Under the pieces are notes generated by a model. It saw only the letters and a list, made by a program, of their open reading frames with translations. It was not told the origin of the DNA and did not search any database. Positions 3,264 through 57,790 of a stretch of DNA of 64,000 nucleotides are shown piece by piece; the first letter of the stretch is position 1; every line of letters starts with the position of its first letter. The DNA is from a phage, in the sequence record PQ400055.1; one strand, written 5' to 3'. The translations under genes and the position numbers were made by a program.

Positions 3264-3331
3264 AAGTCATTCCCCCAGATTAAAAATATTCAGTTATATT
3301 TATAATCTGGGGCTTTATTTATGATTAACTC

Positions 3332-3928
3332 TTATTTGGTAGTACCGTCAATAAAATGTTTACGGCACACAGAGACATATTTATCCTCTGCACCAACTTC
3401 TATTTGAGCACCATCGCGAATAACATTACCCTCTTTATCTACACGAAGGACCATTGTTGCTTTCTTGCCACAATGACAAATACCCTTCATTTCGACCAGT
3501 TTATCAGCAAATGCCATTAATGCCGCAGATCCTTCAAATAGATTGCCCTGAAAGTCGGTGCGAAGGCCATAGCACAGTACAGGGATATTTGCATCATCGA
3601 CAAGCGCACACAAGCCTAAAACATGCTCTTTAGTCATAAATTGGGCTTCATCTACAAATACAGCATCAGGACGCCATCGATCCGGTCTACGCTTACCTAA
3701 CGATTCACGATAAACCAAATCGAAAAGATCATCCGATTTAGTGAAGGTGATCGCTGGAGCACTTAGACCAATTCGGGAAACAACTTCACTTTCTGAATCT
3801 CGATTATCAATCGCTGGCTTAAGAATTAATACTCGCATATCACGTTCGGTATAGTTATAAGCACTTTGTAACAGAGAAGTTGATTTGCCAGCGTTCATAG
3901 ATGCATAGTAGAAATATAGTTGCGCCAT
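3332..3928 (-). CDS. tk: thymidine kinase
   Basis: P-loop MNAGKST, DEAQF, C-terminal Zn motif CHCGKKA...CRKH; typical TK1-family architecture. Confidence 0.95.
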   Translation of the reverse strand: MAQLYFYYASMNAGKSTSLLQSAYNYTERDMRVLILKPAIDNRDSESEVVSRIGLSAPAITFTKSDDLFDLVYRESLGKRRPDRWRPDAVFVDEAQFMTKEHVLGLCALVDDANIPVLCYGLRTDFQGNLFEGSAALMAFADKLVEMKGICHCGKKATMVLRVDKEGNVIRDGAQIEVGAEDKYVSVCRKHFIDGTTK

Positions 3929-4221
3929 TAATTAATCTCCAAAAATCCAGCAAGACCTAAACCGATATAAGTCCAGATACAAAGGAAAAAGAAGCAAACA
4001 CCCATAGCAAAGATAAATCCTCGTAGTGTCTTTGGATAACCTACCCAATATTCCCGACCATCTTCTAACCGGATCAGCTTATTTCCTTGAGAGTCCATAT
4101 CAATTACAACATGTTTATTTCTGGATTGTAACAGATATTGCTTGACAATCTCAATACCCGCCATAATAACAATAACGAAATTGAAAGTCCACATAACAAG
4201 GTTAATGGTAGTCTCAAGCAT
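3928..4221 (-). CDS. small membrane protein
   Basis: Two hydrophobic segments; start overlaps tk stop. Confidence 0.5.
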   Translation of the reverse strand: MLETTINLVMWTFNFVIVIMAGIEIVKQYLLQSRNKHVVIDMDSQGNKLIRLEDGREYWVGYPKTLRGFIFAMGVCFFFLCIWTYIGLGLAGFLEIN

Positions 4222-4456
4222 TTTCTATCACCTCCACCCAATCAGGCGTTTCCTGAAATACTCCTTCGCCTTCGTGGTGGATGCATCCTTTATTGCTACA
4301 ATACATCCACCAATCCCACATTCCCCACGGTAAACGCTGCATATCGTCGTTACAGCAAGTGAAGACAATAGGCAAACCACATCTAACACATCGGCAGTTT
4401 TCCTTCATGTGAGCGGTATTAGGCTTCTTCATAGATGACTCCAATATAATCGACAT
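4214..4456 (-). CDS. Cys-rich zinc-ribbon-like small protein
   Basis: CRCVRCG...CC...C motifs. Confidence 0.45.
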   Translation of the reverse strand: MSIILESSMKKPNTAHMKENCRCVRCGLPIVFTCCNDDMQRLPWGMWDWWMYCSNKGCIHHEGEGVFQETPDWVEVIENA

Positions 4457-4659
4457 TTACATTTAGGGCAATGCGGTTCTTTAATATAATACCCGTCTGT
4501 CTTTGGAACACTAACAGGAGCGGTTTTTATATTGTATTCCGTGAAACAACGAAAACAAGTTACGTTTTCCACAGACTGACGTTTCACCCAATAACCGGAA
4601 TAGAGGTCATTTTTATTTGTCATATTCCACCACCACAATGTTAATGTCTGGAGTAGCAA
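4429..4659 (-). CDS. Cys-rich zinc-ribbon-like small protein
   Basis: CFRC...CPKCKC motifs. Confidence 0.45.
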   Translation of the reverse strand: MLLQTLTLWWWNMTNKNDLYSGYWVKRQSVENVTCFRCFTEYNIKTAPVSVPKTDGYYIKEPHCPKCKCRLYWSHL

Positions 4660-5068
4660 TATTAATGATTTCTTCTACACATTCCCACTCAAGGCCACCG
4701 ATACCGCAACCGATTTTAGGGATATAGAAAGGCTGTATAGCACCTTCAAAAACATCATTGAGAGTCTCAAATCCTTTCAGGATAGCACCATATTCAGCAT
4801 TTGGACCCGGTCGGAATTGGGTATAGAGATTCACCCCGCACCAGTTATAACCATTAACTTGATGCGTCCAGACACTAAACCCACCCAACTTTTCTACCTT
4901 ACCGCGAGAAGTTTGCTTGTCAATCTCTAACGCTTGCGGGAACTCTTTCGCGATATCCGCAGCAATACCAGCGCCCATAGTATGAAAACAATTACAACCA
5001 TGAATTAAATGACCGTTTCCTTGTTTAAACAGGGCGATGAGATCGCCCTTTACAGTATCAATAATCAT
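4613..5068 (-). CDS. macro-domain (ADP-ribose binding/processing) protein
   Basis: N-terminal GDL...HGCNCFHTMGAGIAADIA and C-terminal IPKIGCGIGGL match the macro-domain signature segments (NAAN..GGGV.GAI and FP.ISTG.YG). Confidence 0.7.
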   Translation of the reverse strand: MIIDTVKGDLIALFKQGNGHLIHGCNCFHTMGAGIAADIAKEFPQALEIDKQTSRGKVEKLGGFSVWTHQVNGYNWCGVNLYTQFRPGPNAEYGAILKGFETLNDVFEGAIQPFYIPKIGCGIGGLEWECVEEIINIATPDINIVVVEYDK

Positions 5069-5083
5069 AATATAAACCTCTCA

Positions 5084-5443
5084 TTAGTCACGGGAAGACA
5101 ACCCAGCCATAAAACGGCTTAACAGTGTGTCGCGATAAGCAAAGCATAATTGCTTATCAGGGGCAGTATCACACAGGTTACGTTTTGTTTTAGCAAAGCT
5201 GGCAATACTCAGATCCCACGCTCGATTTTTTCGTTTTTCGTCTCGACCTTGTTTGTATGCCTCGTCAAGTTCAAGCGCGATAAAATCGCTACACATGTTA
5301 TCATCATCACAGAAGGTTTTAATGATCTTTTTGTTGATCTCAAATCCTTTGTATTCGAACTTTGGATAAGGGCGCTCATTACTAGCAAGCGCACCAGCCG
5401 AGAACATCATAGCAATCATAGCAACTATTGTCAACTTTTTCAT
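5084..5443 (-). CDS. secreted/periplasmic Cys-containing protein
   Basis: Signal peptide MKKLTIVAMIAMMFSAGALA; several Cys. Confidence 0.5.
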   Translation of the reverse strand: MKKLTIVAMIAMMFSAGALASNERPYPKFEYKGFEINKKIIKTFCDDDNMCSDFIALELDEAYKQGRDEKRKNRAWDLSIASFAKTKRNLCDTAPDKQLCFAYRDTLLSRFMAGLSSRD

Positions 5444-5450
5444 ATATTCC

Positions 5451-6041
5451 TCAATAGCGTTTAGTTTTAAGAATGCCTTTACTCTTTAGATGGTTAGCCT
5501 TTTTTAGTACGTCATCAGCATAGCCTAACCCAGCTTTATAGTTCCATCCAGCATTGTAAGAAGCTAGCGCGAGTCGGATATTACCGTTTCTAACATCCAG
5601 CCAGTATGCTAACTCATCCATCGCGTAGAATGCAGAAACCTCGCGATTCATGATAAAGTTGATAGTCTGGCGATCACTCATTTTAACACCGCGCTTTGCA
5701 TTTTTCGCTTTCACCGTTTTAAGGTAATTTTGAAATAATCCATAAGCATGATGATTTTTCTTTGGTGCTAAGTTTGCACCCGCGCTTGATTCTTGCCATG
5801 CGATACCCGCCAGGATGTGACCTAAACCCTTTCCGTTATAGCGAATATTCGGATGGTCCTTTTTCAACTTACCGCTTTTCTCGAATTGTTCGCCGTATTG
5901 ATAGGCGAAATGTAAATTATCTAGTTGGTGTGCTGTAAAGTTGTCTATCGGCGCTTTTTTGATCGGTGCGCTAGTCGATGCGTGTGTAGCACCAACGGCT
6001 AGTGACAGACTCAATACTATCGCTTTTAGAACTTTTAACAT
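5451..6041 (-). CDS. periplasmic lytic transglycosylase (SLT domain)
   Basis: Signal peptide; SLT motifs ES (AWQESS), GLFQ, SYNAG in canonical order. Confidence 0.7.
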   Translation of the reverse strand: MLKVLKAIVLSLSLAVGATHASTSAPIKKAPIDNFTAHQLDNLHFAYQYGEQFEKSGKLKKDHPNIRYNGKGLGHILAGIAWQESSAGANLAPKKNHHAYGLFQNYLKTVKAKNAKRGVKMSDRQTINFIMNREVSAFYAMDELAYWLDVRNGNIRLALASYNAGWNYKAGLGYADDVLKKANHLKSKGILKTKRY

Positions 6042-6126
6042 TAATTTCTCCTGTTTGGCTTAACTTTCTGATTCCATAATATAGCCATATCACCAGAAAG
6101 TCAAGCATTATTTTAACCAATCTCCA

Positions 6127-30357: not shown

Positions 30358-30677
30358 ACATTAAACTACACTACACAATGGGTAAAGCTAAGTTCCCAAT
30401 GCAAAAGCATTACTATGGTCTACGTGCACAAGATCCAAAACTCTATGGTACTCATTGGTTTTGTAAACATGATAACCAATGGCACACATACGAAGAAATG
30501 CACGAGATGATGAAACAGGGTATTGAATTGAGTTATTCTAATTATGACCATCGTATAACTTGCATTCGAAAATTGAAACGATGGATTCGTAAGAATCCGC
30601 AATTTAAAAACTTTGTGTTCTTTATGTCTCATGTTTATTTGGGACATAGCGTTACCGTCACAGCAAAGGTTAAATAA
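30345..30677 (+). CDS. hypothetical His/Cys-containing protein (110 aa), cassette gene B
   Basis: ORF translationally coupled to A; begins MAR. Confidence 0.6.
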   Translation: MARVNIKLHYTMGKAKFPMQKHYYGLRAQDPKLYGTHWFCKHDNQWHTYEEMHEMMKQGIELSYSNYDHRITCIRKLKRWIRKNPQFKNFVFFMSHVYLGHSVTVTAKVK

Positions 30678-31516
30678 TGGCACGACTTTCTAAACAAGAA
30701 CAAAAATTACACGATCGGGTGATGGAGTTGATTAATTCAGATCGCCCATTGACATATGAAGAAAAAGAATTTTGCTATAATAACTATCATGGCGATGGTC
30801 TAGGCGGTTCAGGTGCATTCTTTACCCCAGAAGGGCTTGCATGGGATTTTACCATCGATGCACATTGCACAGGAAAAGTATTAGATCTTTGTGCTGGGAT
30901 CGGTCTCTTATCTTTTTGTATGTTACATCGTTGTAAGCCAGAAAAGATCGTATGCGTCGAACTCAATCCAGAATTTGCGCGGATTGGCAAGCGACTATTA
31001 CCGGAGGCAGAATGGATCACCAGCGATGTATTCGAATTTGAGTCAAACGAAAAATTCGATGTGGTGATCAGCAATCCACCTTTCGGGAAAATCAATACAA
31101 CCAACACAAAGGATGTATTTGAGTACACTGGCGGCGAATTTGAATTTAAGGTTATGACATTAGGCCAGAAGTTTGCCGATGTTGGCTATTTTATTGTTCC
31201 TGTGGGTTCCGCTGGTTTTGCTTATTCCGGCAGACCTTATTATGACGGGACCATGAAGTCTAATAAATATCTAAAATGGAGCAAACAAACTGGTTTGGTG
31301 ACTTATGCCGGATGTGGGATCGATACATCAATCTATCGCGATGAATGGCACAGTACCAACGTTTTAACAGAAGTGGTTGAGGTTCGGTATTACGAGAAAG
31401 AAGCCGTAGAAGCGCCTAAATCACGCCCTAACGAACAAATAGAAGAAAGTAAGGAGATTACCTTACCGAAACAGGAAAGCGAGTCTGGGACGCTCTCAGA
31501 TTTGTTTGACATTTAA
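30677..31516 (+). CDS. SAM-dependent methyltransferase (amino-MTase type, NPPF motif)
   Basis: Motif I VLDLCAGIGLL, motif IV VVISNPPFG; start overlaps B stop (TAATG). Confidence 0.75.
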   Translation: MARLSKQEQKLHDRVMELINSDRPLTYEEKEFCYNNYHGDGLGGSGAFFTPEGLAWDFTIDAHCTGKVLDLCAGIGLLSFCMLHRCKPEKIVCVELNPEFARIGKRLLPEAEWITSDVFEFESNEKFDVVISNPPFGKINTTNTKDVFEYTGGEFEFKVMTLGQKFADVGYFIVPVGSAGFAYSGRPYYDGTMKSNKYLKWSKQTGLVTYAGCGIDTSIYRDEWHSTNVLTEVVEVRYYEKEAVEAPKSRPNEQIEESKEITLPKQESESGTLSDLFDI

Positions 31517-56406: not shown

Positions 56407-57621
56407 TTAAGCAGGATGCGTTTCACGAATGCGTAGAACTCGCTCTAACGTCTCTCGGTCCAGTTTATGTAACTTTTTGGACTGATACATGAAACCATTG
56501 CGAGATTCCATGCAAGTGCAATCACTATATTTTTCTTCCGCTGCCGCGATTGTCTCCAGATCTTTGGCGTACTTGCTGGTTGAATAAACTTCTCGGTTAC
56601 GCCACTCTAACCCAGCCTCATTGAATTTAACAATCTCGTCAAATACCCACCATCCAATGTAGATAAATGAAGTTTTGCGCCACGGGATCGGGTGTACGTA
56701 ACGAAACATTTTAACAACTTCCATTGAACATTTTCTACTTGTACTTGTTGCAACTTCTACTGTTTCATCTTCGATCTGTTGATATAGTTTAGCAACACAC
56801 CAGAATTTGGCTGTGTCATCGTAAGTAGCACTCTCTTTGAACAGATGACCGTCTGGCATGATAGAAAATCCTTCCTGTGCTTCGCCGACCTCACTACCGA
56901 TCAGAGTCGGTGGCATTTGCCCTTCGCGCTGCAAATACCAGTTATATTTGATCGTCAAATTAGGCATACCGCTAGAATCGCCTACAATGTTCTCTGACAC
57001 AACATAATTAAGTGATATCTCATTACCTAGTGCCACGGTCTTTGATTCCACCACATCCTGATCTACGTTCATTGTTGCCAGCATGATTTTAGTCGATGTG
57101 CTAGCGGCTGAATCTTCCGACTCACCCCACACTTTTACAGTATACACGCCGTTTTTATCTGCTGTAAATTCTTGGATCGTAATATCCTTTTTTGTGTCTA
57201 TAACTTCTTCGCCCTTACTCCAACTATAATGTAGTTCATAGTTGTCTGATGGAGTCTTCCCACCCGAAAATTTTACTGTTGCATGTAATTCTACGTTTGT
57301 TTGTGATGATACGTAGAAATGCTGCGGTTCGGTGATATTTACGATTAATTCAGCTTCTTCCATGAGGAAAACTTCAGATTCTACTGATGTCATCGTATCG
57401 GTATCCTGTACCGTTACTTTATAGCTACCCGCATTTTCACTTGTTGCGTCTGCTACAGTTAGCGTAGCTGTGCTATTTTCATGCGGTTGGTCGTCTTTTG
57501 TCCATGTATATGTCAAATTGCTGGGTAATGGTTCGTCACCCGCTACAGTCGCCGTTAAGGTGAAACCATCTCCAGCAAGAAAACATCTTTTGTCAGATTT
57601 AATTGATACTGTGAAAGTCAT
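56407..57621 (-). CDS. hoc: Hoc-like outer capsid decoration protein with Ig-like domains
   Basis: Tandem Thr/Ser-rich beta-rich (Ig-like) modules plus C-terminal domain; size and position as T4 hoc. Confidence 0.7.
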   Translation of the reverse strand: MTFTVSIKSDKRCFLAGDGFTLTATVAGDEPLPSNLTYTWTKDDQPHENSTATLTVADATSENAGSYKVTVQDTDTMTSVESEVFLMEEAELIVNITEPQHFYVSSQTNVELHATVKFSGGKTPSDNYELHYSWSKGEEVIDTKKDITIQEFTADKNGVYTVKVWGESEDSAASTSTKIMLATMNVDQDVVESKTVALGNEISLNYVVSENIVGDSSGMPNLTIKYNWYLQREGQMPPTLIGSEVGEAQEGFSIMPDGHLFKESATYDDTAKFWCVAKLYQQIEDETVEVATSTSRKCSMEVVKMFRYVHPIPWRKTSFIYIGWWVFDEIVKFNEAGLEWRNREVYSTSKYAKDLETIAAAEEKYSDCTCMESRNGFMYQSKKLHKLDRETLERVLRIRETHPA

Positions 57622-57790
57622 ATAAAGCCACTCCCATAGAAAATCCGAATTTAATTAATTGAAATAGTTGATTGCCATCAACCAGATAACCATTGCGAGA
57701 TTCCAATACATGAGTATTAGAATAGTGATGCAACGAGGCCGAAATAGTATCGATCTCGTCTGGGTATTTGTTCTGTTTGATGTAATACAT
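57599..57790 (-). CDS. hypothetical protein (63 aa)
   Basis: ORF overlapping hoc start. Confidence 0.4.
   Translation of the reverse strand: MYYIKQNKYPDEIDTISASLHHYSNTHVLESRNGYLVDGNQLFQLIKFGFSMGVALYDFHSIN

Follow-up and report, generated by a model that had tools for sequence, protein, structure and literature searches.

DarTG is a widespread antiphage defence that ADP-ribosylates phage DNA, and knowing which phages carry erasers of this modification helps in predicting host range, which matters for the choice of therapeutic E. coli phages such as Krischviruses. The AdfN family (gp30.3) counters DarTG1 in T4, and T4 without AdfA and AdfN has been found to be still resistant to DarTG2, from which a further factor was predicted (PMC11825919). 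According to the available text of a November 2025 preprint, tk.4 was the single significant hit obtained with a T4 transposon library on a DarTG2-expressing host; T4 became sensitive to DarTG2 on clean knockout of tk.4, which was non-essential on plain K-12, and the gene was given the new name adfM ("anti-DarT factor Macrodomain"), with ADP-ribose removal by its product put forward as a proposal (bioRxiv 10.1101/2025.11.20.689424). This single preprint is the source of the DarTG2 phenotype of T4 tk.4. The A1pp/macro match of tk.4 orthologues had been noted already in 2006 (PMC1524935).

The name AdfM has been given independently to gp104 of phage PhiKZ, for which the removal of ADP-ribose from T-ADPr oligonucleotides has been shown biochemically. 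Residues N23 and K78 form its putative active site, an N23A mutant has lowered activity, and the protein is expressed late and imported into the phage nucleus (PMC13309987, Cell Rep 2026). The Streptomyces coelicolor macrodomain SCO6735 also acts on thymidine, from which it removes ADP-ribose, and it rescues cells from DarT; its Gln85 is essential for thymidine-ADP-ribose hydrolysis, as the Q85A variant is inactive, and the mechanism described for it is based on mutagenesis and MD simulation (PMC9411070).

The locus described here lies within a stretch of 64,000 nucleotides of phage DNA (sequence record PQ400055.1), referred to below as the window. Over bases 3300-6100, the window shares 99.6% identity with Escherichia phage W115 and 97.6% with RB49, two members of the genus Krischvirus of the Straboviridae. 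The gene family and its anti-DarTG2 role are already described, and the gene considered here is an orthologue of the recently characterised T4 anti-defence gene; sequence analysis thereby extends the T4 anti-DarTG2 factor AdfM to another genus.

The macrodomain gene and its surroundings

The copy of the macrodomain gene in W115 is labelled "macro domain protein", the RB49 copy has carried the name tk.4 in its annotation since deposition, and an identical protein in phage GoldenSnicker is labelled "phosphatase". The initial annotation had pointed to a 151-aa ORF with two segments diagnostic of macrodomains, and both of them, VKGDL...HGCNCFHTMGAGIAADIA and FYIPKIGCGIGGLEWE, are present in the translation of the minus-strand ORF. 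The gene, its signals and the adjoining small ORFs are as follows.

4613..5068, minus strand: tk.4/adfM orthologue, a stand-alone macrodomain (ATG ORF, 151 aa, 16.6 kDa, pI 4.97)
4613-4615, minus strand: TAA stop codon of the macrodomain ORF, counted within 4613..5068
5077..5082, minus strand: Shine-Dalgarno sequence GAGAGG, 8 nt before the ATG (5068-5066), read directly off the sequence
5084-5086, minus strand: stop codon of vs, just upstream of the Shine-Dalgarno sequence of the macrodomain gene
4429..4623, minus strand: Zn-ribbon ORF of 64 aa, Phage_zn_bind_2 (PF23903), E 1.7e-23, start as in W115
4214..4456, minus strand: Zn-ribbon ORF of 72-80 aa, Phage_zn_bind (PF23895), E 6e-33

A promoter scan returned 19 promoter-like sites versus 13.2 +/- 3.9 in shuffled controls, which is no enrichment. 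The best sigma-70-like match, at 5406-5434 (minus strand), lies inside the 5' end of vs and consists of TTGACA, a 17-nt spacer and TATGAT with an extended TG (11/12 positions); its location would suit a promoter of tk.4 and the genes that follow.

On the minus strand of the window, the gene order is regB, vs.1, vs, tk.4, the two Zn-ribbon ORFs, a small membrane protein and tk, and the order in T4 is tk, tk.1-tk.3, tk.4, vs, vs.1 and regB, with the slot tk ... tk.4 - vs - vs.1 - regB being common to the window, W115, RB49 and T4. The placement of the gene in an early region is plausible, as it derives from the tk-regB synteny with T4 and from the strand that the gene has in common with other prereplicative genes. 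The 151-aa protein aligns over its full length with T4 Tk.4 (151 of 155 residues; 44% identity, 65% positives, E 5e-45), and the flanking genes are 53-62% (tk) and 45-54% (vs.1) identical to those of T4-like loci. Because the 44% identity of the macrodomain protein is comparable to the divergence of flanking tk and vs.1, vertical descent fits tk.4, and the gene at 4613..5068 is, to judge from sequence and gene order, the Krischvirus orthologue of T4 tk.4/adfM. The counter-defence role that had been suggested for the gene is supported by this relationship, since a full-length syntenic orthologue is at hand whose knockout, as far as the preprint text describes it, sensitises T4 to DarTG2. Across 80 viral macrodomain-gene loci, tk lies less than 4 kb away in 20 and vs.1 in 23.

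The two Cys-rich ORFs that had been described as zinc ribbons immediately upstream of the gene are real, and both match Pfam families. With transcription running along the minus strand, however, their lower coordinates place them downstream (3') of it; the ATG of the 64-aa ORF, at 4623, produces an 11-nt overlap with the end of the macrodomain gene. Both were considered as functional partners of the macrodomain and rejected: neither is homologous to T4 tk.2 or tk.3, the Phage_zn_bind ORF occurs within 4 kb of the macrodomain gene in only 7 and the Phage_zn_bind_2 ORF in only 5 of the 80 viral loci, at varying positions, and neither was found near the gene at any of 80 bacterial loci. With so inconsistent a linkage, their adjacency carries no functional weight, and they are variable small-ORF filler of T-even genomes that forms no module with the macrodomain. 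Phage_zn_bind and Phage_zn_bind_2 are recently defined Pfam families whose members shift within the tk-tk.4 region of T-even genomes and are absent from T4.

Several other genes of the window were observed alongside. In the product of vs.1 (5451-6041, minus strand), a hydrophobic, signal-like N-terminus precedes an SLT lytic transglycosylase domain (Pfam E 6.6e-6), and the protein is a predicted periplasmic murein-cleaving enzyme from an early-region gene. Homologues of two known counter-defence genes of T4, the anti-CBASS gene 57B/acb1 and dmd, an antitoxin against RnlA/LsoA, are found at 15301-15762 and 14379-14579 (both minus strand), with 100% identity to RB49 gp57B for the former and 97% to the RB49 copy for the latter. 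Between the late baseplate genes 8 and 9, at 30677-31513 (plus strand), lies a homologue of RB49 ORF143w, whose annotation notes a similarity to an rRNA guanine-N2-methyltransferase. A small ORF at W115 57388-57714 (L001:14609-14801; roughly 11900-12240 of the window) is annotated "large polyvalent protein associated domain 25", and such a domain as a stand-alone early gene is unusual for a T-even phage.

Fold, class and the catalytic position

The 151-aa protein matches Pfam Macro (PF01661) over the complete profile (positions 1-118 of 118; E 2.1e-6, 28.1 bits vs a gathering cutoff of 22) and PHROG 335 with an E-value of 2.5e-62, so that the predicted macrodomain match is far beyond chance. 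An AlphaFold2 model built from 105 homologues (mean pLDDT 97.4, pTM 0.92) displays the three-layer alpha/beta/alpha macro fold, and the macrodomain assignment of the initial annotation is right by sequence and by predicted fold, with the HMM search (PF01661) and structure prediction in agreement. Foldseek searches with the protein returned TARG1 at the top (E 9e-11, TM 0.76-0.82, 28-30% identity), followed by DarG, Poa1p, BT1257 and SCO6735 (the last with E 1e-6 and TM 0.73), and in profile comparisons BT1257, TARG1, SCO6735 (56.5 bits) and DarG are matched about equally well. In NCBIfam and PADLOC, DarG is the sole match, through its macro portion only. No solved structure of any Tk.4 protein was found in the Foldseek and profile searches. 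The protein is a member of the ALC1-like class (TARG1/DarG/SCO6735/Poa1p), and not of the MacroD, PARG, macroH2A or viral classes, and the ALC1-like class is the one that holds the known thymidine-ADP-ribose DNA glycohydrolases.

The pocket of the protein can be located through the following residues.

4991..4993, minus strand: codon of Asn26 in the HGCNC motif, the invariant active-site Asn, equivalent to DarG N22 and PhiKZ AdfM N23
4961..4978, minus strand: residues 31-36, MGAGIA, the first Gly-rich ADP-ribose/phosphate-binding loop, aligned with TARG1 MGAGIA and DarG MGKGIA
4817..4819, minus strand: codon CAA of Gln84 in the N-x-Y-T-Q motif, in the column of DarG K80, TARG1 K84 and PhiKZ AdfM K78
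4694..4720, minus strand: residues 117-125, PKIGCGIGG, the second Gly-rich loop, aligned with TARG1 PRIGCGLDR and DarG PPLGVGNGG

Conservation of this pocket was assessed in an alignment of 105 sequences, in which Asn26 is present in every member. Invariant along with N26 are G34, A36, N80, Y82, P117, G120 and G122, and M31, G32, A33 and I35 are each conserved in at least 90% of the homologues. At position 84, 104 of the 105 diverse family members have Gln, and a Y-T/S-Q motif (YTQ or YSQ) is found in 76/79 viral and 76/80 bacterial homologous ORFs. By HMM and MAFFT alignment, the N80-L-Y-T-Q84-F strand corresponds to L-I-T-K84-K of TARG1, F-P-T-K80-K of M. tuberculosis DarG and F-P-T-K78-D of PhiKZ gp104, and the column of TARG1 Asp125 is occupied by Gly124. 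The columns of the catalytic strand were defined by MAFFT with DarG and TARG1 as anchors, as BLASTP and hhalign alignments to gp104 are off by 1-2 residues there, and the equivalence of Gln84 with SCO6735 Gln85 was established by transitivity through the DarG and TARG1 alignments, in addition to a statement in PMC9411070. As judged from these alignments, the Gln at the catalytic position characterises the whole family and does not result from misalignment. For the design of catalytically dead controls of Tk.4-type proteins, N26 and Q84 are the residues to mutate, and there is no Lys to seek.

Proposed function, distribution and alternative readings

By analogy with the described enzymes, the 151-aa protein is probably an anti-DarTG2 ADP-ribosyl-thymidine DNA glycohydrolase that relies on Gln-dependent chemistry of the SCO6735 type, and a probability of roughly 70% is assigned to this reading. 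When DarTG2 is triggered in the host, the DarT2 toxin ADP-ribosylates thymidines of single-stranded phage DNA, and replication is blocked. The 151-aa protein would then grip the ADP-ribose moiety via its two Gly-rich loops and Asn26 and hydrolyse the thymine-ribose bond, through which the DNA would be restored and the infection could go on. Gln84 would most likely position the substrate and an activated water, providing a lysine-independent route, unlike that of the Lys-dependent DarG and TARG1. The present analysis supplies the fold and class of the protein, its conserved pocket, Gln84 and its orthology and synteny with tk.4, and the genetics of T4 tk.4 and the biochemistry of SCO6735 and PhiKZ come from others; from the two together, we infer the activity of the 151-aa protein itself by analogy.

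The absence of the canonical catalytic Lys of DarG and TARG1 counts against the proposed hydrolase function, and the replacement of this residue by Gln84 would suit a non-catalytic antagonist, which would bind DarT2 or sequester ADP-ribosylated sites and would hydrolyse nothing. Such an activity has precedents, as DarT is inhibited in vitro even by catalytically dead forms of SCO6735, DarG and TARG1 (PMC9411070), and AdfA and AdfB have been proposed to act as binders, not as enzymes. However, the Gln of SCO6735 at the same site is not only compatible with high hydrolase activity but required for it (PMC9411070), and the ADP-ribose pocket, which includes N26 and the two Gly loops, does not vary among more than 100 diverse homologues, as expected of an enzyme. 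The protein also comprises just 151 aa, with no counterpart of the C-terminal DarT-binding domain of DarG, and a purely binding role is considered very unlikely.

A second alternative is implied by the database label "phosphatase", according to which the protein would be a general enzyme of ADP-ribose metabolites, for example an ADP-ribose-1''-phosphate phosphatase or an O-acetyl-ADP-ribose deacetylase, that tidies up NAD by-products and has no specific anti-defence target. The label, however, stems from a smart A1pp domain match of 2006 and not from an assay (PMC1524935), and small-molecule activity in the ALC1-like class usually accompanies activity on macromolecular adducts, as in TARG1 and SCO6735 (PMC9411070). 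Given also that the T4 orthologue has a specific DarTG2-dependent phenotype in the preprint text (bioRxiv 10.1101/2025.11.20.689424), a function confined to metabolites seems quite unlikely.

The distribution of the family is very wide. A tblastn search recovered homologues in 2,779 of 50,697 phage records, covering many genera and hosts, and the groups in which the family is abundant include Felixounavirus, Vequintavirus and PAK_P1-like phages, among others. The closest relatives outside Krischvirus (67-70% identity) belong to ~140-kb Vequintavirus-like phages such as HdK5 (MK373780) and Bas59, and T4-like phages are more distant (44-52% identity). At L007, one of the two loci compared from this group (L007 and L008), the Zn2 ORF (78% identity) also lies about 260 bp downstream of the macrodomain gene, which suggests, at the sequence level, that a small block may have been exchanged laterally between Krischvirus and Vequintavirus-like phages. 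In bacteria, a pattern scan found a relative in about 508 species genomes, mostly of marine Rhodobacterales, Desulfobacterales and Alteromonadales; the bacterial Gln-type members that were inspected (loci L087-L166) include those of Ruegeria, Roseovarius, Pseudoalteromonas and Shewanella, and several adjoin aspartate-semialdehyde dehydrogenase. The homologous ORFs, viral and bacterial, are stand-alone genes of ~140-180 aa, with 154/159 shorter than 200 aa. When 119 immediate neighbours of the bacterial copies were sorted by Pfam family, the housekeeping families semialdehyde dehydrogenase, ABC transporter and EamA came out as the commonest, and DarT is outside the 25 most frequent families, so that it can account for at most 2 of these neighbours.

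This wide spread, and the presence of bacterial copies in housekeeping, DarT-free neighbourhoods, would also fit a more general role in ADP-ribose processing. A third alternative is a broader eraser acting also on, or instead on, the marks of other defences, including RNA-targeting (CmdT-like and RhsP2-like ARTs) or protein-targeting toxins, with DarT2 being one of several opponents. The Gln-type SCO6735 acts on both DNA and protein, and the range of TARG1 is wide (PMC9411070); a survey reports, in its available text, enzymes that reverse RNA ADP-ribosylation (PMC11833690); and a very wide phage distribution, with no linkage to DarT in bacteria, fits a generalist. Against this, the T4 screens yielded tk.4 with DarTG2 only, among the systems described in the accessible part of the preprint (bioRxiv 10.1101/2025.11.20.689424), and a broader eraser of this kind appears unlikely.

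The same distribution bears on the suggestion of the initial annotation that the protein regulates the phage's own ART activity, erasing or tuning the marks set by Alt, an Alt-like ORF and ModB. In the closely related RB49 genome, modB and alt are accompanied by a second Alt-like ART (Pfam ADPrib_exo_Tox E 1.8e-9 for alt and 4.3e-16 for the Alt-like protein), and it is plausible that one genome should encode both writer and eraser. All of these ART genes, however, are located outside the window and far from tk.4, and members of the family abound in phages such as Felixounavirus, Vequintavirus and the PAK_P1-like group, and in bacteria. The marks themselves also argue against the idea, since Alt, ModA and ModB of T4 modify arginine, a linkage that is cleaved by ARH/DraG-type enzymes. 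To our knowledge, arginine-linked ADP-ribose is cleaved by no macrodomain, and the substrates of the ALC1-like class are thymidine-, acidic-residue- and phosphate-linked ADP-ribose. In the preprint text, moreover, the only phenotype described for T4 tk.4 is DarTG2-dependent, and the gene is non-essential on plain K-12 (bioRxiv 10.1101/2025.11.20.689424). Regulation of the phage's own ARTs is unsupported by the class of the protein and by the frequency of the family in non-T4-like phages, and it is regarded as highly improbable.

The preferred reading, an anti-DarTG2 glycohydrolase, can be set beside a further gene of the lineage. RB49 encodes gp30.3, of the AdfN family, which like modB, alt and the Alt-like ART gene is outside the window; with gp30.3 (AdfN) and tk.4 (AdfM), the lineage has the same two-part anti-DarT kit as T4.

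Comparison with described macrodomains

The closest described counterpart is T4 Tk.4, which has the same HGCNCFHTMG and NLYTQF motifs with Gln at the catalytic position, a similar length (155 vs 151 aa) and the same genomic slot between tk-proximal small ORFs and vs/vs.1/regB. The two differ in genus (Tequatrovirus vs Krischvirus) and in 56% of residues, the small ORFs between tk and tk.4 in T4 are unrelated to those of the window, and the DarTG2 phenotype described is that of T4. Because identity is just 44%, the substrate specificity of the 151-aa protein could differ from that of T4 Tk.4.

DarG, the antitoxin of a type II TA system whose macrodomain structures have been solved from M. tuberculosis (5M3I) and T. 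aquaticus (5M31/5M3E), was ruled out as the family of the 151-aa protein on four grounds. The protein scores 49.8 bits against a cutoff of 250 with NCBIfam DarG (NF048014) and covers only positions 2-141 of the 338 of the profile; it is a single domain that lacks the C-terminal DarT-binding domain of the ~340-aa DarG; it has Gln84 in place of the catalytic Lys80; and the neighbours of its gene in the window are vs and a Zn-ribbon ORF, with no DarT. The same profile gives 30.3 bits for T4 Tk.4 and 137.8 bits for PhiKZ gp104.

PhiKZ gp104 (L006:22518-23006; 162 aa, pI 5.05) is likewise a stand-alone phage macrodomain that counters DarTG2, and it resembles the 151-aa protein in size and acidity, although the identity of the two is only 26% (E 9e-7). 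An argument from low pI against a DNA substrate was dropped, as this biochemically active AdfM is equally acidic (pI 5.05 vs 4.97). The structure matches of gp104, however, are to DarG only (M. tuberculosis DarG, 90.7 bits, E 9e-25); the protein is closely derived from DarG and keeps Lys78, whereas the 151-aa protein has Gln there. The name AdfM has therefore been given to two non-orthologous phage proteins, the Gln-type T4 Tk.4 and gp104 with its Lys78, which have only 26% identity to each other, and in the accessible text of the two naming papers neither mentions this Gln/Lys difference.

Human TARG1/OARD1 (PDB 4J5R/4J5S) has the GDL, MGAGIA and P-x-IGCG-x-x-x-L-x-WE motifs in common with the 151-aa protein. 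It differs in being a eukaryotic enzyme with protein and nucleic-acid substrates, and its catalytic dyad Lys84/Asp125 is replaced by Gln84/Gly124. SCO6735 (PDB 5E3B) is of the Gln type and has no TARG1-type Asp, as is the case for the Q84/G124 pair of the 151-aa protein, and it too is a stand-alone gene that is not paired with DarT. The identity of the two is only ~23%, and SCO6735 comes from a bacterium, is regulated by DNA damage and has an extended mobile loop as well as an electropositive groove (PMC9411070), whereas the phage protein is shorter and acidic; its pI of 4.97 suggests that its surface differs from that of SCO6735.

T4-type AdfM appears to form a lineage of its own, distinct both from DarG and from the DarG-like AdfM of chimalliviruses, because its bacterial relatives are stand-alone genes with no DarT among the 25 commonest neighbour families. 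It is tentatively conceivable, though still doubtful, that T4-type AdfM is an independently recruited second lineage from Gln-type (SCO6735/BT1257-like) bacterial macrodomains and not a captured DarG, lysine-independent and erasing adducts beyond the DarT2 thymidine mark, such as those on protein or RNA. If this were true, T4-type AdfM, which is found in roughly 5% of sequenced phages, would be a general shield against ADP-ribosylating immunity. What the comparison adds to the known systems is that T4-type AdfM is Gln-type, with bacterial relatives unlinked to DarT, and that one name covers two lineages with probably different chemistry, which bears on both the nomenclature and the design of mutants.
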